A stretch of 64,000 bases of DNA, taken from IMG/VR virus record IMGVR_UViG_2541047873_000001; one strand, given 5' to 3'. This document shows positions 12,974 to 50,938 of the stretch, piece by piece. The notes under the pieces are model-generated. The model did no database searches and had not been told where the DNA came from. It saw only the letters and a list, made by a program, of their open reading frames with translations. This stretch comes from a virus. Taxonomy: Duplodnaviria; Heunggongvirae; Uroviricota; Caudoviricetes. Position numbers and translations under genes: made by a program. Positions within the stretch are counted from its first letter, which is position 1. The number at the start of each line of letters is the position of its first letter.

Positions 12974-12990
12974 TTAATTTTCTAACACAG
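12974..12990. promoter_or_regulatory. Operator-like site (TTAATTTTCTAACACAG)
   Basis: Copy of the dispersed AATTTTCTAACA motif, 14 bp after the stop of the upstream gene. Confidence 0.5.
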
Positions 12991-26381: not shown

Positions 26382-26415
26382 TGTGTTAGAAAATTAAAAT
26401 TGTTTTTCTAACATA
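26382..26415. promoter_or_regulatory. Palindromic operator pair
   Basis: tgtgttagaaaattaaaattgtttttctaacata: perfect inverted half-sites gttagaaaa / ttttctaac. Confidence 0.6.
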
Positions 26416-33569: not shown

Positions 33570-34607
33570 TTACCAGAGTTTTGCCGCGTACATCGTTTGT
33601 GTGAATGTGTACCCATAGCGTTCTTCAACGCTTTTACCGTATTTTTTCCTGGCTTCAGTAAGGCGGATGCCTGTCAGGTCATCGCCGGAGGCAATCATAA
33701 CTTCCAGTAGTTCCAGGTCCATTTTATCCAGCCTTGCCATTGCATCTTTAGCCTCTTGAATTTTCCGGCTAACGATCTGGTGTATGGCTGGATCGGCTTC
33801 GGCCAGCATTTTATCTGATTTGTTTTTTAAACTCTGATTGCGGATATCAATGTTTCTCAGGATATATGACTTCACGACATAGCTTGGCTGCTGCTTTTCC
33901 AGATCACGAACCCGATAAAGGTCAAATTCGCCGAGAAGTCCGCACGGAAGCGGTTTAATGCCAGTGTAAATGGTAAGGGTGCGGCGCTCACCAACGTTGT
34001 TAACAACGGGAATCTCTGTGTTTGCTTTTTTTGCAAAGATCAGCGCACCGTGCGTACCCACTCTGAAGCGTGAAAGTCCATTGTTGCCCTCGATATTGGT
34101 GGTAATCACCACATCGGTATAACCTTCTTTTCTTGCGCGGTATACCTCGCCCTCACGTTCAGCGGCGAAGAATCTGCGTTCTTCTTCAAGCGCACCGACA
34201 ACCTGTGAAAATATCCTGTTTTTCATGCTTTTCTTTATAGTTTTATCGTATTTTTTCAACAGGTCTTCGCGCGTAAATGTTCTCGTTGTGGTTGCGCTTT
34301 GCATAACGATATGCGTACTCTGATTAGTATCCTCAACAATGAATGGGATCGGTAAATAAACCGACTCAACAATGTTTGAGGCTTTGTCATCATCCTTGCG
34401 ACACAGATCAACAAAGGCTTTCCATTCGGCTACGCATTTTTCAGCTTCTTCTAATACAGCCGGATCATGTGTTAATGCAACATGGCGAAATTCCTCGCCA
34501 ACATAACTGGTATCATGGAAAACAGAGTTTGCGACCACCAGCTCTTTCCACCGTTCAGCGGTTTGCAGGAACCGTTTGTACTCATTCTCGATCGACTTCT
34601 TACTCAT
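33570..34607 (-). CDS. Candidate C1-type immunity repressor (positional inference only)
   Basis: 345 aa (ATG at 34607, MSKKSIENEY; the ORF-track N-terminal extension crosses operator sites). Divergent from the recombinase gene, with operator copies in its 5' region; sits between pacB and the lox-like site where c1 lies in P1. Confidence 0.35.
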   Translation of the reverse strand: MSKKSIENEYKRFLQTAERWKELVVANSVFHDTSYVGEEFRHVALTHDPAVLEEAEKCVAEWKAFVDLCRKDDDKASNIVESVYLPIPFIVEDTNQSTHIVMQSATTTRTFTREDLLKKYDKTIKKSMKNRIFSQVVGALEEERRFFAAEREGEVYRARKEGYTDVVITTNIEGNNGLSRFRVGTHGALIFAKKANTEIPVVNNVGERRTLTIYTGIKPLPCGLLGEFDLYRVRDLEKQQPSYVVKSYILRNIDIRNQSLKNKSDKMLAEADPAIHQIVSRKIQEAKDAMARLDKMDLELLEVMIASGDDLTGIRLTEARKKYGKSVEERYGYTFTQTMYAAKLW

Positions 34608-38928: not shown

Positions 38929-38958
38929 GAAGCCCGCTTGGTTGAGCGGGCTTCTTTT
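38929..38958 (+). terminator. Rho-independent terminator
   Basis: gaagcccgcttggttgagcgggcttc hairpin plus a T run. Confidence 0.55.
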
Positions 38959-39338
38959 CAAATATTGGAACCATATAGTTCACGTAGTTTTTCCGCTACT
39001 GAAGATACGGGGATTTCACCAGTTGCAGCCCCCACCGCAAGTTCCACCAGCACGGGAGAATCATATACCTGTATACCGTTACGGCGTAGAAATAGCAGCG
39101 CACTGTTTAGCGCGGTACGCTTATTGGCATCATTGAATATATGCCCTCTCGCTGTAGCCACCAGGTAGGTGGCGGAGACTTCGAAAAGGTCGGTGATCTC
39201 TTCGTAGGCAACTCTGGCCTGAACTCTCCCGATAATGGCCTCTGCCCTACCCGGATCTGACATTCCCGGCAGGCCGCCGTAGCGGTTTATATTCGCATCA
39301 TGAAGCGCAATAAGTTCTTCCGGTGATATATGCCTCAT
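38958..39338 (-). CDS. doc: Doc toxin (Fic/Doc family)
   Basis: 126 aa, near-identical to P1 Doc as remembered ([17 protein letters not shown]...[15 protein letters not shown]). Confidence 0.9.
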
Positions 39339-39559
39339 TATCGGTTAACCAGTTCCTTGTTGGTGGAGTCCAGGGTGTCAAACAGGGATGCAAATTCAGC
39401 ATCCAGCGCCGCTTTTTTGTAGGCTTCGAAAGTAGCCTTGCTGACAATTACTGCTGGCTCACGGCCTCTGCGGGTGATTTCAACCTCTTCCCCTGCTTCA
39501 ACATTATTGAGCACTTCGCTAAGGTTGCCGCGTGCGGTACGGAAGTTAATGGATTGCAT
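39338..39559 (-). CDS. phd: Phd antitoxin
   Basis: [39 protein letters not shown]; ATG at 39559 (the ORF-track start is an upstream GTG); stop overlaps the doc start. Confidence 0.9.
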
Positions 39560-40224: not shown

Positions 40225-40614
40225 TCATATAGCAGGACTATCATCAAATTCACCGCCCCTGGCGTCATTGATAATGTGGGTGATCACACCAAAAACAGCA
40301 TTACTGCCCGTGTATCCATCGTCATCCACTGGTAACGCCTCTTTCTTCCCGGTGCTTAAATCCTCCAGGTGCTGGCGCGGATACTTCCTGTATCTCTTTA
40401 TGCGATATTCACCCTCCATAGCGCATATAAGCAGTGAACCATCAACCGGAGTAAGTGAGGAATCAACCACCAGCAAAGCACCTTGCAATATTCCCTCACG
40501 GTGATGGCTGTCTGCCGCCCGCATGAAGTAGGTCGCAGAAGGATGTCTGATTAGTTGCTGATCAAGAGAAATTCGGCTTTCAACATAATCCGCCGCAGGA
40601 GAAGGGAAGCCCAT
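40225..40614 (-). CDS. humD: HumD (UmuD homolog, S24 peptidase-like)
   Basis: 129 aa as in P1 HumD; UmuD-type C-terminal core; LexA box in its promoter. Confidence 0.75.
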   Translation of the reverse strand: MGFPSPAADYVESRISLDQQLIRHPSATYFMRAADSHHREGILQGALLVVDSSLTPVDGSLLICAMEGEYRIKRYRKYPRQHLEDLSTGKKEALPVDDDGYTGSNAVFGVITHIINDARGGEFDDSPAI

Positions 40615-40737: not shown

Positions 40738-40989
40738 TTATTTTTTTGGTGCATCCTCGTTCTGATACACCGGATCGCTCCCTTTTGGCAACTGGAGGCT
40801 TAACTGCCGGTAGTGCCGTAGCCGTTCCATGAAATAGGCGCGCAGGTTTTCCGGTTGCTCACGGGCCACCTGCTCTGCAATCACAGGTATATTCAGCCGT
40901 TCTTTGTAAGCAACGCCGCTGGCGGCAAGGTCTACGTTCACCTTGTCTCGCTCTTCCTGGCTTTTAGCTGCTATATTTCGATCTGACAC
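40738..40989 (-). CDS. Hypothetical protein
   Basis: 83 aa, upstream of humD on the same strand. Confidence 0.4.
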
Positions 40990-45815: not shown

Positions 45816-45856
45816 AATGTATACCGACTCTGTTTTGTTCCGAGCGGTAAAATAAT

Positions 45857-45888
45857 ATGTTAGAAAATTAAAATCAATATTCTAACAC
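45857..45888. promoter_or_regulatory. Bipartite operator
   Basis: atgttagaaaattaaaatcaatattctaaca inverted half-sites, intergenic. Confidence 0.55.
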
Positions 45889-45919: not shown

Positions 45920-46606
45920 TTACGGCTGTCCTCCCTTCACCTGCTTTAGCGTCAGATTTCCGCAAAAAACCGCGCCAGTGTCTATGTAGTGCTGGTTCCA
46001 GAAAGATTTCGGGCTGTTTACTGGCGTATGCCCGAAAATAAAGCTATCTGCACCAGTGATCATTCCACCAACACCATCAACCGCGTCATAAAATCGCTCA
46101 CGCCGCCAGGTAACATTGAGATCGCTAACAGGTTTACCAAACTGGTATTCGTTATCAGGATAGTCGGCATGGGCTATAACGATAGTTTTATGCCCGGTGT
46201 TCAACTCAATGATATAGGGTAAACGTCTTACCAGCTCCACCAGCGCCCTGGCTAATATTTCCCGATCAGCGTCCAGCATGAAGAACCATTGGCCGCCATT
46301 CATTAGCCAGTTATTCACGTTGCCTGCGGGGCTTAACGCATCGATCATTAATCGCTCGTGGTTTCCCATAACCGACCGAAACCAGGGCATCTGCAATAGC
46401 TCCAGGCATTCAACATTTTCGGTGCCGCGATCGATAAGGTCGCCAACCGATATCAGTAAATCCTGTGTCGGGTCAAAGTCCACACGATGAAGTTCAGACA
46501 TCAATCTGGTGTAGCAACCATGCAGATCACCAACAACCCATATGTTTCTGTAGCCTGAACCATCAATACGGCTATATAAATTCACTTCATGCAGCGCCTG
46601 GGTCAT
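45920..46606 (-). CDS. ppp: Ser/Thr protein phosphatase (lambda PPase / P1 Ppp-like)
   Basis: GDLHGC, GDLIDRG and GNHE metallophosphatase motifs; ATG at 46606 overlaps the upstream stop. Confidence 0.8.
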
Positions 46607-46914
46607 GCGGCAACCTTCTCCCGCAGCCAGATACAAACCGGGCCATCTTCAGTGTCATGAATAGAGCCAACAAACCATCCTTCGCCCTCTGGTCGCTCTG
46701 GTTCCCAGGCGGCAATATCGGGACCATCTGCGTCCAGATTAAAATGATCTTCATCCATACTGCGAATAGTCCACTGAAGATTATTTTCCTTCATCCAGGC
46801 GTCAAATTCCTCAGTGGATATATATTCACGATCTGCGCAAAACTTTTCATACTCCGGATGTGTCCAGCAGCCATATTCATCACGTTCTACCGGCATTTCT
46901 TTAATGATGCTCAC
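46603..46914 (-). CDS. Hypothetical protein
   Basis: 103 aa, coupled to ppp. Confidence 0.4.
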
Positions 46915-47135
46915 TCTTCATCCTCCAAGTCGGCAACGGCCTCCATCACATCAGAACCGCGAATAACCTCAAAAGCACGGCAGGCCATTTCAAACACCTG
47001 TTGTTCTTGCGGATGCGGTGACTCCCAATACTTAAAACCAGGTCGATGCTCGTAACCCAACATGGAATAAAAATCGCCAGCAAGTTCAATCGCGGCATCA
47101 ACAAGTTCGCGATTTGTCATCGTCTGTTCTGTCAT
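46911..47135 (-). CDS. Hypothetical protein
   Basis: 74 aa, coupled. Confidence 0.35.
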   Translation of the reverse strand: MTEQTMTNRELVDAAIELAGDFYSMLGYEHRPGFKYWESPHPQEQQVFEMACRAFEVIRGSDVMEAVADLEDEE

Positions 47136-47407
47136 TTTGTTTTCTCCTGTCTGAACATCACTATCATCAGGTCGCCTTTTGTCGCTATCCTGGCTGTTGT
47201 ACCTGGTTCAATGCGGCTAAGCTCAAATGCGTCATAGAACGCTTCTAATGCCTTCTGGCGTAGTTCCTGTTTGCGCCGTTTTTTCCACTGTTTTAGGAAA
47301 ATGGAACCCAGCCATCGCCATGTACGGGACATGATGTAAAGCCAACCGAGAAGTGCCAGACCGGTATTTAGGAGCGTATCGATCGTTATTGTCGTGTCGA
47401 TATTCAC
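47132..47407 (-). CDS. Small membrane protein
   Basis: 91 aa with TM helix LLNTGLALLGWLYIM. Confidence 0.35.
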   Translation of the reverse strand: MNIDTTITIDTLLNTGLALLGWLYIMSRTWRWLGSIFLKQWKKRRKQELRQKALEAFYDAFELSRIEPGTTARIATKGDLMIVMFRQEKTK

Positions 47408-48114
47408 TGGCTGCCTCCTTTGCGAAGCTGTTCAGCAATACTTACGCATATCTCTGCGCCTCTAATCAGCCCCGGAACGTTCTTGTTTGGCCCAACTTCA
47501 CCATCGACAAAATCAATCATCGCGTTACGAGCCATATCCACGCCCTGCGCACGTACTTCAGCCAGGAAAGCATCGGTGGCTGGGGTGTCAACACGGATAC
47601 TGTCGCGCAAGATGAAAAATGCATTGAGCATTCCAGTCTCTGGCACTTCATCCTGATGCTTCTCATACGCATCAAGAGCCTTCATCATCTCAGCTCCGAA
47701 TGGTTGAGGGTGCACAGACTTCAGCTCCGCATTCTCCGCCGCCAGCACCACGCGTTCGCTCTCCAGTTCTGTAATGCGCCGTCTTGCAGCATCCAGTTCA
47801 ATCGACAATTTTCCCAACTGCTCTTTATGCTTCTTGTATTCCTGATATGCGTGCCAAGACTGACCTTTGCGCACACTATCCGTGATATCAGTAATCTGTT
47901 CTGGTGTTAGCGTGGTCAGTGGCTGTGCTGGGAAAATCAGCACTTTCCCGGCATCCCAATCAAAACCCACCTGAATTGACTGAACCTCAACTGATGGTGT
48001 TGAACCGATGCGACCAGGCGAATGAACAACGATCGTTACATTCATATCGCGACGATGGCTGTGGTTGTTGGACAAAATACGATTCACCAACTCCGAGAAT
48101 TTGGAAAATTTCAT
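47404..48114 (-). CDS. Ea22-like family protein
   Basis: ATG at 48114 ([10 protein letters not shown]) overlapping the upstream stop; C-terminus related to 49119..49793. Confidence 0.4.
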
Positions 48115-48434
48115 GCTGATTCCCTTTGCTCTTCCTGGATAATGTTGTTGCAATCTTTCACGCACTCGTTGCAGATGAAAACGTTGTCCCCGGCAATTAA
48201 CTTTTTAACGGTGTGCTGGGATTTGTTGCAGAAGCTGCAATAAAGCGTTGGACTGGCTGATACGGATGGTGCGCCAGATGTCAGCCGCGCGATGTCGTTC
48301 TTGCGACGCAATATCACACGGCTGCACTCGACCAGCATCTCCGGGGATATATCCTCCTCCGTGGCGAGCGCCTCCAGACGTTCGAGCAAGCGAAATACTT
48401 TTTCCTGGGTGATTGCAGAATGCGATGTGGTCAT
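48111..48434 (-). CDS. Stand-alone ClpX-type C4 zinc-finger (ZBD-like) protein
   Basis: [39 protein letters not shown] closely parallels the ClpX N-terminal zinc-binding domain; AAGGAGAG RBS; no AAA+ module. Confidence 0.55.
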
Positions 48435-48435
48435 C

Positions 48436-49122
48436 TCACTCTCCTTTGAGGCGAATGCCAGCGGCACGGGAATCATTCCATCGCTTTACTTCTTCACGAA
48501 TTACGTCAATGCATTCTTTCGAATCCATTAGGTAATCTTCATCAAAAAGCCTTTCCTGTTCGTTTTCTATCGCAACAATGATTGCTTCAACTAACTTTTG
48601 TGCCTGAGAACCACTTTCTAACTCTGCAATGCGCTTCTCTGCGGCTTCCAGCTTCTCGCGCATATCGTCAACGTACTCGACCAGAGATCCGCCAGCAGGA
48701 ATTTCGCACTCCTCGACCAGTTGGAAGTAGATATCAGCTGCGGCCCGTGTGTTGCTATGCCTAGCGTCGCCCATCTCACCTTCACGAAGAGCATCGCGTT
48801 CGGCGGTAAGATTGGCTATTTTGCTGTCTTTGCCTTCAAGCTCAACGCGCAGCTTCCCTACCGTTAGCGCAATATCCTCGTTCTCCTGGTCGCGGCGTTT
48901 GATGTATTGCTGGTTTCTTTCCCGTTCACCCAGTAGTGCCAGCACGGTTTCTGGTCCGGCCAGAAATTTGAAGGCGTTGAGCGCATCAATATCCACACCG
49001 TAATCTTTAAGTTCCTGTTCACTTAACAAATCATCATCAGCTGGCAACATTAACAGGCGTTCCATTGCTGGAATTGCACGTTCCGCCGCCTCACGCAGTG
49101 CCTGGTAATTAATTTCGCTCAT
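48436..49122 (-). CDS. Ea22-like coiled-coil protein
   Basis: N-terminus [16 protein letters not shown], paralogous to 43248..43979. Confidence 0.5.
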
Positions 49123-49793
49123 TGGTTGCCTCCTTTGCGAAGCTGGGCAGCGAACCTATCAGCTGCATCCGCGCAAGCAGAAGCAACGGAATCAAAAAAT
49201 GGATCATCTCCTGTATCGCGCATCGTCAAAGCGAATGCCTCCACCCCTTGTGCCTGTATTTCTACAAGGGATGCCTTAGATGTACTGCTTTTCGCCTCGC
49301 CTAATTCGTTATGAGCGATGTTCGCTATACATGCGATGTCTATATCTGGATGATTAATTGGGCAATGGCTAAGAATTGCCTCAAGTGCTGCTTTTTTGCT
49401 TTGGCATTCCGCCACCAGCGCCCCGCAATTGCTTTCCAGCTCTGCAATACACTTTTTAGCGGCCTCCAGCTCAACACGCAGATTCTCAAGCGTTAGAGCC
49501 TTCTCCACGTTCTCGTCCAGCAGTTCAATCACATCAGGATCGCTACCATCAACTACTGATATGCGCGAATTTTTGTAATGCTCGTCAGCATAAGTTCGTC
49601 CAGTTTTGAAGCATCCGTCATCCTCCATGCCGGAACAGGCATAAACAACATGTGATCCAGATATGCGCTGCATTGACATTTCCTCGCCACAAACAGGGCA
49701 TTTAGGCGCTGGTTTCGGTGAATAACGTTCACGTAACGGATAGTAAAGCTCGATCTCCGCCAGTTGCTCTGGCGTTAAACCTTCAGACTTCAT
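49119..49793 (-). CDS. Ea22-like protein with Cys-rich N-terminal region
   Basis: C-terminus matches 47404..48114; CPVCGEE...C..C motif. Confidence 0.45.
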   Translation of the reverse strand: MKSEGLTPEQLAEIELYYPLRERYSPKPAPKCPVCGEEMSMQRISGSHVVYACSGMEDDGCFKTGRTYADEHYKNSRISVVDGSDPDVIELLDENVEKALTLENLRVELEAAKKCIAELESNCGALVAECQSKKAALEAILSHCPINHPDIDIACIANIAHNELGEAKSSTSKASLVEIQAQGVEAFALTMRDTGDDPFFDSVASACADAADRFAAQLRKGGNQ

Positions 49794-50100
49794 GTACTCT
49801 CCTTTCGAAATAAACGTACTGATTAATCATTCCCAGGGGCATTTCGAGTTTTTCTGCGATCTCACGGCGGGGAACACCACACTGATGAAGCTGCCGCGCC
49901 AGTTCTATATCGCTCTGCCGGTATTTGGCTGACTGGTGAAAGTCTCCTTTCAGAATCATGCTGATCCGCAGTTGCCGCGCTTTAGTCCTGACAGCACCAC
50001 CGGTACGCCCGATCAGTCTCCCAATACCCTCGACTGTCATAGTCCCGGCGCACTGGCGGAGTATCATGATTTCTGCCCTTCCCCATCCCCGCCAGCTCAC
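49783..50100 (-). CDS. Hypothetical protein, possible HTH
   Basis: 105 aa; ARQLHQCGVPRREIAEKLEMP resembles a helix-turn-helix. Confidence 0.35.
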   Translation of the reverse strand: MSWRGWGRAEIMILRQCAGTMTVEGIGRLIGRTGGAVRTKARQLRISMILKGDFHQSAKYRQSDIELARQLHQCGVPRREIAEKLEMPLGMINQYVYFERRVHEV

Positions 50101-50708
50101 GCAGAACTCCTTCTAACCAAAAGAACGCCATCTTCAGAAACAACGTTGCAGGACTTCAGGTAATTCATTGCCTCTTTCGGTAATGGATTCTTTGGATCGG
50201 CGCTTGCCAGGGATTTCGATAACCTCATGATAAATTTGATCATTACCTTCTGACGGAGCTTGTGCTCATGAGATGCAGACAGGTAATAGGAAATGGTATG
50301 GGCTAAACGCTCACGAAGCTGTTCTGTGCCGTGATATACAGCAGCGATATCACGCAGTGCATTGACCAGTTCCCGGTAAATATGCGGAGCAACCTGGCAT
50401 TCAATGTTGGTTGGTGACTCATAAATTACATTCAGCCCCAGCTTTTGAGCCAGCTCGTGCTCTGCACGAGCGCCAACTGATTCCTCCCACCCCTTGAGCA
50501 AATAGACCGCATTAGCCGAACGCACCATTGCAAGGCAAATATCCATGTATTCGCTCTGGCAGAGGCCAGCAGGTAACAGCGCCGGATTCAGAACAATATG
50601 CCCTACCTCCATCAGCTCTTTTGCTTTCGAAAAAAACGCTGTGCGGTTGTAGTCGGGATAACCAGTCATCGGACCCGCGATGTAAATTTTCATAATGCGT
50701 TTTGACAT
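50097..50708 (-). CDS. DUF4406 (nucleoside 2-deoxyribosyltransferase-like) protein with extra C-terminal domain
   Basis: MKIYIAGPMTGYPDYNRTAFF...GHIVLNPA signature; ATG at 50706-50708 overlaps the stop of the small ORF upstream (TGATG). Confidence 0.5.
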   Translation of the reverse strand: MSKRIMKIYIAGPMTGYPDYNRTAFFSKAKELMEVGHIVLNPALLPAGLCQSEYMDICLAMVRSANAVYLLKGWEESVGARAEHELAQKLGLNVIYESPTNIECQVAPHIYRELVNALRDIAAVYHGTEQLRERLAHTISYYLSASHEHKLRQKVMIKFIMRLSKSLASADPKNPLPKEAMNYLKSCNVVSEDGVLLVRRSSA

Positions 50709-50860
50709 CAAAGTTTCCCCAGGAACGTTACGCAAAAGTTGATGAGAGCAAAGAGTTCAATGCCCAGCTCAAACAACGCCAGGACAGTGAAAAACAGGGC
50801 ATATAGCAACCCAATTTCTGTACCGGATTGCTGGTGGATTGCACTTATTGCGACAAGCAT
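50708..50860 (-). CDS. Small hydrophobic peptide (~50 aa), first gene of the leftward operon
   Basis: GGAGG RBS, then MLVAISAIHQQSGTEIGLLYALFFTVLALFELGIELFALINFCVTFLGKL; not in the ORF track (under 60 aa). Confidence 0.3.
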   Translation of the reverse strand: MLVAISAIHQQSGTEIGLLYALFFTVLALFELGIELFALINFCVTFLGKL

Positions 50861-50904
50861 CATGACCTCCTGATATAGCGTCTGAAAAAAAGTATCTTCA
50901 TTTT

Positions 50905-50938
50905 GTGTTAGAAAATCAATTTTGATTTTCTAACACAT
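50905..50938. promoter_or_regulatory. 34-bp palindromic operator between divergent operons
   Basis: tgtgttagaaaatcaa-tt-ttgattttctaacaca: perfect 16-bp inverted repeat. Confidence 0.65.

Follow-up and report, generated by a model that had tools for sequence, protein, structure and literature searches.

Why would a temperate phage-plasmid carry the docking domain of the host protein ClpX on a small protein of its own, detached from the AAA+ ATPase that the domain normally serves? The question is raised by a gene at positions 48111–48434 (minus strand) of a 64,000-nucleotide stretch of the virus record IMGVR_UViG_2541047873_000001, which was analysed as a whole and is referred to here as the window. 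Phage D6, a plasmid prophage related to P1, covers 74% of the window at 89% identity, and the nearest relatives are Escherichia coli plasmids, NZ_CP104667 among them, with a size of about 90 kb; the window is a D6-like, P1-related phage-plasmid. An earlier note on this DNA had described the gene product as a stand-alone ClpX zinc-binding domain (ZBD) that might act as a decoy and alter proteolysis by ClpXP. Tentatively, we regard as the best explanation that the ZBD protein is indeed a decoy which titrates ClpX adaptors and ZBD-dependent substrates. The idea appears reasonable, has a precedent in vitro and is, as far as we could find, unpublished; as first put forward it seems incomplete, because it left the protein's N-terminal domain out of account. 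The gene and the parts of its product are the following.

48111–48434, minus strand: coding sequence of the two-domain ZBD protein, 107 amino acids (aa), MTTSHSA...QEEQRESA, start ATG at 48434, stop codon included
48129–48248, minus strand: ClpX-type C4 ZBD, residues 63–102, assigned by Pfam, by sequence and fold matches in the PDB and by alignment
48249–48278, minus strand: linker, residues 53–62, a mosaic joint with a predicted local distance difference test score (pLDDT) below 50 at residues 56–59
48279–48434, minus strand: N-terminal family-specific domain, residues 1–52, predicted by AlphaFold2 to be a helical hairpin (helices 10–26 and 31–52)

The open reading frame (ORF) lies exactly where the earlier note had placed it, and its C-terminal part belongs to the ClpX ZBD family. 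The sole Pfam match of the protein is zf-C4_ClpX (PF06689; E = 9.8e-18, 64.2 bits against a cut-off of 27), with residues 65–101 aligned to profile positions 2–39 of 39, and the closest solved structures by sequence are those of the E. coli ClpX ZBD (1ovx and 2ds5/2ds6/2ds8; E = 1e-15 to 4e-15). ClpX of other taxa matched less strongly (Listeria 4e-10 and Neisseria 3e-8, versus 1e-15 for E. coli), which fits mimicry of the host's own ClpX. An ungapped codon alignment showed identity to the ZBD of E. coli K-12 ClpX at 28 of the 39 core residues. The cysteines of the zinc-ligand motif CxxC-x18-CxxC, namely C66, C69, C88 and C91, correspond to C14, C17, C36 and C39 of ClpX and are kept in all 27 distinct family sequences; the protein probably binds zinc. 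The motif had been quoted correctly, and the alignment proposed at that time as a check groups the finger with the ClpX ZBD and with no other zinc-finger family, whether judged by Pfam, by PDB sequences or by fold.

Mutagenesis of ClpX has defined a hydrophobic docking pocket, comprising F16 and I46, for the binding of trigger factor, lambda O, SspB and RssB; the region bound by trigger factor overlaps the lambda O site, and SspB and RssB bind to the same region (PMC7804408). The equivalents of both pocket residues are present in the phage protein: F68 (F16 of ClpX) is invariant, and I98 (I46) is isoleucine or valine in 25 of the 27 distinct family sequences. Invariant throughout these sequences and equal to ClpX are the four cysteines, F16, I28, G30, I35 and V40. 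Family-wide departures from ClpX concern G18 (N/K), E23 (A/T) and R25 (K), to which the phage-plasmid clade adds the replacement of P31-S32 by D/E-D/N, and position 42, a leucine in ClpX, is an aspartate in the window copy. The protein carries no AAA+ ATPase module, as had been claimed before: the NCBIfam ClpX equivalogs TIGR00382 and NF003745 scored 47.5 and 43.6 bits, far under their cut-offs of 359 and 371, with matches confined to model positions 5–50, that is the first 50 or so positions, so that the 107-aa protein does not qualify as a full-length ClpX equivalog.

The structure was predicted with AlphaFold2 as a monomer from an alignment of 23 sequences (mean pLDDT 73, predicted template modelling score (pTM) 0.35). 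The model comprises helices at residues 10–26 and 31–52, a low-confidence linker at residues 53–62, short strands and a helix at residues 89–106, and contains the predicted ZBD fold of two beta-hairpins and a C-terminal helix. Top matches of a Foldseek search against the PDB were 2ds6, 2ds5 and 2ds8, the last of which is a complex of the ZBD with the SspB tail, each with a probability of 1.00. The E-value of about 1e-3 and the root-mean-square deviation (RMSD) of 3.1 Å to 2ds6 over 38 residues can be attributed to the moderate quality of the monomer model.

The description as a bare ZBD does not hold, since half of the protein is a family-specific helical hairpin; membership in the ClpX ZBD family and lack of an ATPase are parts of the earlier interpretation that stand. 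Residues E11, E18, R19, E21, E26, E27, E36, R43, R44, D47, L51 and S53 are invariant in both subfamilies described below. An exhaustive HMMER search with residues 1–60 among 1.84 billion representative proteins returned nine matches only; seven are members of the two-domain family or truncated forms of it (P0039, P0008, P0041, P0042, P0044–P0046), the other two (P0040, P0043) are repetitive proteins of unclear relation, and in none is the hairpin joined to another domain. For the same residues no Pfam, NCBIfam or PADLOC family was detected, fold searches of the hairpin against the PDB and BFVD yielded meaningful matches for the ZBD part only, and BLASTP with an IraP sequence gave no alignment to the N-terminal domain. 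The conservation of a family-specific hairpin over half of the protein argues for a role more specific than that of a passive decoy. Two singletons (P0022, P0024) carry an identical ZBD on Ea22-like coiled-coil N-termini and are mosaic recombinants found on a single contig each; as these other N-termini are joined at the linker, we regard it as a recombination joint.

The family comprises two subfamilies. The phage-plasmid type occurs on D6-like plasmids (about 90 kb) and on SSU5-like or CMS-2020a-like ones (about 108 kb), in every case amid Ea22-like genes. The P2-like type (MQHIDREKAQRLIERMEALAKEE...) is found in P88 (Xuanwuvirus) and in many chromosomal prophages, at a locus that consists of a replication endonuclease gene, parM, a ParR-like gene, the ZBD gene and a variable region beside the portal gene. 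Among 77 IMG/VR loci examined, 43 were of this ParM-ParR-ZBD kind and 32 of the Ea22 kind. An ORF of 104–112 aa and of unknown function is present in 27 of the 43 former loci; where annotation was available (L003, L005 and L009), it shares 4 nt with the ZBD gene. In P88-like P2 prophages (L003, L005, L007, L008, L009), the cargo in front of the portal gene is an XF1762-family gene, an Ea22-like gene or a Phd/Doc-family pair.

The gene is under purifying selection. Between the subfamilies, the ratio of nonsynonymous to synonymous substitution rates (dN/dS) amounts to 0.19–0.24 for the whole gene and 0.25–0.33 for the ZBD. In comparison with E. coli clpX, synonymous sites are saturated (proportion of synonymous differences, pS, 0.83–1.0), yet 28–32 of the 39 residues are identical across family members. 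Taken together, these values indicate that the ClpX-like sequence has long been kept by selection and is neither a fresh capture nor decaying. Recent capture of the host gene was accordingly rejected, given a nucleotide identity to clpX of 59% overall and 47% at third codon positions; a blastn search, which found the gene in 195 of 5426 complete E. coli genomes and never matched clpX itself, speaks against it as well. Inside the phage-plasmid clade, where few sites are available, dN/dS is 0.24–0.40 for the hairpin and 0.65–0.98 for the ZBD. Relative to the homologues of D6 and PhiR41_1, changes in the window copy of the ZBD (48129–48248) cluster in the C-terminal helix, at positions 41, 42, 45 and 48. 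The high ratio in this clade could be a sign of relaxed constraint or of diversification at the surface of the C-terminal helix.

The activity proposed for the phage protein has a direct biochemical precedent, because isolated ZBD added in trans in rising amounts inhibits the sigma-S turnover that is mediated by RssB and carried out by wild-type ClpXP in vitro (Micevski et al. 2020, PMC7226468); in the same work SspB was found to compete with RssB for the same ZBD platform. Such a decoy would act selectively, because loss of the N-domain does not keep ClpX from degrading ssrA-tagged proteins (PMC9963277). In the mechanism that we favour, an early operon under repressor control would supply the ZBD protein in lytic growth, and the free ZBD of this protein would bind ClpX docking motifs in trans, thereby titrating adaptors and ZBD-dependent substrates away from ClpXP. 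The target choice of the protease would be re-programmed and not shut down, as ZBD-independent degradation, for example of proteins bearing a bare ssrA tag, would go on. The N-terminal hairpin may add avidity by oligomerisation or give specificity for one partner. We infer that the protein binds ClpX ligands, is expressed at this stage and dimerises; it is probably a dimer. The gene lies in early-type operons of three temperate phage lineages, and stand-alone ZBDs recur independently in unrelated phages, which points to a useful activity of free ZBDs. Possibly, although we would not rely on it, the temperate enterobacterial phages concerned (D6-like and SSU5-like phage-plasmids and P88-like P2 phages) as well as Cr30 and PP9W2 encode viral anti-adaptors that mimic the ClpX docking domain; with the same reserve, SspB/ssrA, RssB/sigma-S, UmuD/UmuD'-HumD and lambda O/MuA-type clients, and possibly antitoxins, might be spared while basal ClpXP activity stays intact.

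The likeness to the E. coli ClpX ZBD extends from the CxxC-x18-CxxC motif, the 28 (in the family up to 32) identical residues of 39 and the retained F16/I46 pocket to the same predicted beta-hairpins and C-terminal helix. Unlike ClpX, the phage protein has no AAA+ ATPase and bears a family-specific hairpin in front of the ZBD, its copy of the domain differs by G18N, E23T, P31D, S32N, D41K, L42D and R48Q, and it is carried by temperate phages in a form long diverged from clpX DNA. A free ZBD acting in trans, as in the experiments with isolated recombinant ClpX ZBD (PMC7226468), is exactly the activity proposed here; that protein, however, was a laboratory fragment of ClpX, whereas the phage protein is the product of a natural gene with an additional domain, for which the activity is a proposal. 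The E. coli anti-adaptors IraD, IraM and IraP are likewise small proteins that block substrate delivery to ClpXP without inhibiting the protease (PMC7226468), but they bind RssB by folds unrelated to the ZBD protein.

Other stand-alone ClpX-type zinc fingers of phages are the proteins of PHROG 12435 and PHROG 5259, an ORF of Caulobacter phage Cr30 and a protein of Pseudomonas phage PP9W2; unlike the family described here they measure 58–79 aa and have no hairpin, and they are likewise uncharacterised. BFVD contains ZBD-only proteins of 58–65 aa, among them that of PP9W2 (65 aa). The Cr30 ORF (L010; 1486–1725, plus strand; 73–79 aa) is unannotated; it overlaps annotated gp169 at its end and gp170 over its whole length (in a different frame). 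Some jumbo phages carry full-length ClpX, for example Bacillus phage G, where gp258 lies beside a ClpP-like protease. Phage modulators of AAA+ proteases include T4 PinA and T7 Gp4.5, which act on Lon, lambda CIII, which acts on FtsH, and lambda RexB, which acts on ClpXP/ClpAP. Like the ZBD protein in its proposed role, these are small accessory phage proteins that would shield phage or antitoxin proteins from a host protease; they have no sequence relationship to the ZBD protein, and to our knowledge none of them copies a domain of the protease itself. Full-text searches of the literature retrieved no characterised phage ZBD protein and no phage ClpX inhibitor similar to it.

The hairpin could alternatively be the business end of a phage adaptor or anti-adaptor and bind one specific phage or host protein, with the ZBD then either bringing that protein to ClpXP for destruction or holding a host adaptor, for example RssB or SspB, in an inactive complex after the manner of the Ira proteins. 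We consider this unlikely but worth keeping in view, as the N-terminal domain is conserved as much as the ZBD, with 11 residues invariant across the subfamilies, shows, within the phage-plasmid clade, the lower dN/dS of the two, and was not met apart from the ZBD except in the truncated forms and the two repetitive proteins; moreover, the P2-like gene is often translationally coupled to the conserved 104–112-aa ORF (27 of 43 loci). Delivery by this route would demand a docking site for a free ZBD on ClpX, and we know of no such site described. In addition, the N-terminal domain resembles neither a Pfam, NCBIfam or PADLOC family nor the IraP sequence used, and a helical hairpin is too generic for an assignment based on fold. 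The hairpin also bears on the idea that the phage protein poisons ClpX by forming heterodimers with newly made ClpX ZBDs, which would break the trimer-of-dimers arrangement of the N-domains and disable ZBD-dependent recognition. Being very stable and made by subunits of the same hexamer, the ClpX ZBD dimer should be slow to exchange with a free domain, and the phage protein has a probable oligomerisation hairpin of its own; this kind of poisoning is thus highly unlikely, even though the hydrophobic core residues I28, I35, V40 and I47 of the ClpX ZBD vary little or not at all across the phage family, identity with the host's ZBD is 72–82% overall, and the title of Wojtyra et al. (2003), as cited in PMC7804408, names the ClpX ZBD a dimerisation domain.

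The zinc ribbon might also serve a phage regulator unrelated to proteolysis, as a module for dimerisation or for binding nucleic acid or protein. PF06689 is known in other architectures, and a paper on cyanobacterial sigma-factor architecture names zf-C4_ClpX once (PMC11119718); constraint on the ZBD is relaxed in the phage-plasmid clade, where some surface residues conserved in ClpX are replaced, and the neighbouring Ea22-like, DUF4752 and DUF4406 genes provide no proteolysis context. Identity of 72–82% to the ZBD of the host's ClpX despite saturated synonymous divergence, an even closer relation of the P2-like subfamily to ClpX, retention of the pocket residues and the lack of a match to any other zinc-finger family render a function independent of ClpX distinctly improbable. 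That the gene is merely a dead remnant of a captured clpX 5′ end, as its shortness, its accessory nature and its position in a highly mosaic region might suggest, is effectively excluded. Intact copies of the ORF occur in 110 complete E. coli genomes (at least 80% coverage) and a relative is encoded on 197 IMG/VR contigs; dN/dS between the subfamilies is 0.2–0.3, translational coupling and the Shine-Dalgarno sequence are preserved, and the conserved N-terminal domain is not derived from clpX, to which the gene has 59% DNA identity and which never appeared among the blastn matches in the 195 of 5426 E. coli genomes.

Several observations weigh against a decoy. The conserved N-terminal domain would be superfluous for a bare decoy, the ZBD of the phage-plasmid clade shows the high dN/dS of 0.65–0.98 (few sites), and surface positions conserved in ClpX are altered (G18 to N/K, P31-S32 to D/E-D/N and, in the window copy, L42D). 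The structural model is of moderate quality only (pLDDT 73, pTM 0.35, RMSD of 3.1 Å to 2ds6). The gene is accessory, being present on about 94 of approximately 860 plasmids that match the region, and P1 and P7 are absent among the tblastn matches; it is therefore dispensable. Finally, full-text searches gave no paper on the function of the protein.

The genetic setting of the gene is defined by the following features.

45920–50863, minus strand: block of 11 genes with overlaps of 1–11 nt or a gap of 1 nt, taken from the ORF list and present in the same order in NZ_CP104667 and D6
48441–48446, minus strand: Shine-Dalgarno sequence AAGGAG, 6 nt 5′ of the ATG of the ZBD gene and within the codons for L K G E with which the upstream Ea22-like gene ends
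50891–50919, minus strand: weak candidate sigma-70 promoter TTGATT-17 nt-GATACT, matching 8 of 12 consensus positions and lying under the scan threshold
50904–50937, no strand assigned: perfect 16+16 bp inverted pair TGTGTTAGAAAATCAA-tt-TTGATTTTCTAACACA, a candidate operator of the immunity repressor

In order, the block comprises genes for a 51-aa ORF, a DUF4406 protein, a DNA-binding-like protein, two Ea22-like proteins, the ZBD protein, an Ea22-related protein, a DUF4752 protein, two small ORFs and a lambda-type phosphatase. The ZBD gene is the seventh of the 11 translationally coupled genes, and the block is presumably a single polycistronic unit. The TGA stop codon of the gene upstream occupies 48436–48438, the strong ribosome-binding site noted before is the AAGGAG 6 nt ahead of the ATG, and in the sequence ATGA the stop codon of the ZBD gene overlaps the start of the gene that follows. 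The 107-aa form was preferred to a 121-aa form starting from the ATG at 48476, which was rejected because the Shine-Dalgarno sequence precedes the ATG at 48434, because the longer form overlaps the upstream gene, and because the NCBI Prokaryotic Genome Annotation Pipeline (PGAP) and most homologues start at MTTSHSA instead.

The inverted pair, with a spacer of 2 bp, lies between the first gene of the block and a divergent, rightward ref-like gene, and overlaps the candidate promoter. With up to three mismatches, the 16-mer TGTGTTAGAAAATCAA has 16 sites in the window versus 0.72 expected, a number reached by none of 100 shuffled sequences, and D6 and NZ_CP104667 have conserved sites in the same positions. 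The 16 sites of the 16-mer TGTGTTAGAAAATYAA span positions 12974–62687 (e.g. 26382–26415, 45856–45871 and 50904–50937) and include two inverted pairs. The operators of P1 C1 are dispersed and asymmetric, and the scattered 16-mer sites, known in the window from sequence alone, resemble them; by this analogy the block is probably under repression in the lysogen and switched on by induction. The operator-controlled leftward operon postulated earlier has support at the level of DNA sequence, from the 16 sites and the inverted pair upstream of the block. The ORF at the c1 position (33570–34607) matched no Pfam family, and the identity of the repressor acting on the 16-mer sites therefore stays an assumption.

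The neighbouring Ea22-like genes were inspected as well. Their products often end in ...LRKGG(N/S)Q* or ...IR(L/I)KGE* (47404–47430, 48436–48450 and 49119–49140, minus strand; L001, L004, L007). An interpretation of these ends (...QLRKGGNQ, ...QLRKGGSQ, ...IRLKGE) as SspB-like ClpX-binding tails was rejected, as they are the coding face of an embedded Shine-Dalgarno sequence (AAAGGAGG or AAAGGAG) for the coupled next genes and are without the hydrophobic position of the LKxh or LRVVK motif. The Ea22-like protein encoded at 49119–49793 (minus strand) has an N-terminal zinc-ribbon segment, CPVCGEEM...YACSG...C, with weak sub-threshold matches to Lar restriction-alleviation proteins and other zinc-ribbon families.

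Possible clients of ClpXP are encoded 7–9 kb leftward of the ZBD gene, together with a Hot-like gene.

38958–39338, minus strand: doc, 92% identical to P1 over the tblastn alignment 38967–39338
39341–39559, minus strand: phd, product 100% identical to P1 Phd
40225–40614, minus strand: S24 peptidase in the UmuD' form (HumD-like), beginning with MGFPSPAADY like processed UmuD
40738–40989, minus strand: homologue of DNA polymerase III theta (hot)

Phd is a substrate of ClpXP, and UmuD brings UmuD' to the protease by way of an SspB-like tether to the N-domain, which makes the HumD-like protein a concrete candidate for protection. For Phd, named as an example in the earlier note, the presence of phd and doc in the window agrees with the proposal; a general partnership of the ZBD gene with phd-doc does not follow, because P1, which carries phd-doc and humD, is not among the tblastn matches of the ZBD protein in the phage collection, nor is P7. 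A Phd/Doc-family pair was found nearby in only 4 of the 43 P2-like loci, and humD within 4 kb in only 9 of the 32 Ea22-context loci; an obligatory linkage to either was rejected on these counts and on the missing P1 and P7 matches. We found no evidence that degradation of Phd requires the ZBD. If the operator is read correctly and the operon is restricted to the lytic phase, the effect on Phd that had been proposed is unlikely in the lysogen, where the stability of Phd matters for addiction. Nothing links phd-doc or humD in the window to the ZBD gene, and their association is loose.

The gene is not new as an object. RefSeq names the protein 'ClpX C4-type zinc finger protein' (WP_021551796.1), PHROG 6797 (function unknown) matches residues 1–106 on profile positions 1–106 of 107 (E = 1.1e-56), and identical copies of the protein are encoded on plasmids NZ_CP069647 and NZ_CP085065. 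Older records of D6, P88 and many plasmids use the name 'carboxylate--amine ligase', which is unsupported by sequence and has been replaced by newer PGAP annotation. The blastn relatives in 195 of 5426 complete E. coli genomes (about 3.6%) lie about half on plasmids and half on chromosomes under the same PGAP name, and PLSDB contains 94 plasmids with a copy that spans 80% or more of the protein. The gene is real, under selection and widespread. A role as component of a defence system was rejected, as PADLOC-DB gave no match at E ≤ 0.01 for ten proteins including the ZBD protein, its operon neighbours and the P88 homologue.

ClpXP governs proteins of relevance to phages and plasmids, among them replication initiators, transposases, SOS mutagenesis proteins, sigma-S, ssrA-tagged products and several antitoxins. 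Should the ZBD protein have no effect on ClpXP, it would be one more uncharacterised accessory gene product, already named by its domain. If the decoy is real, it would, as a natural 'domain decoy' directed at the substrate choice of a bacterial AAA+ protease, be the first of its kind, with the hairpin supplying target specificity. It would provide a simple genetic tool to turn off adaptor-dependent ClpXP degradation in vivo, and protection of the element's own clients, such as Phd and the UmuD'-like HumD, during lytic growth would become testable. Phages would then tune which proteins the host protease picks rather than block the protease itself.

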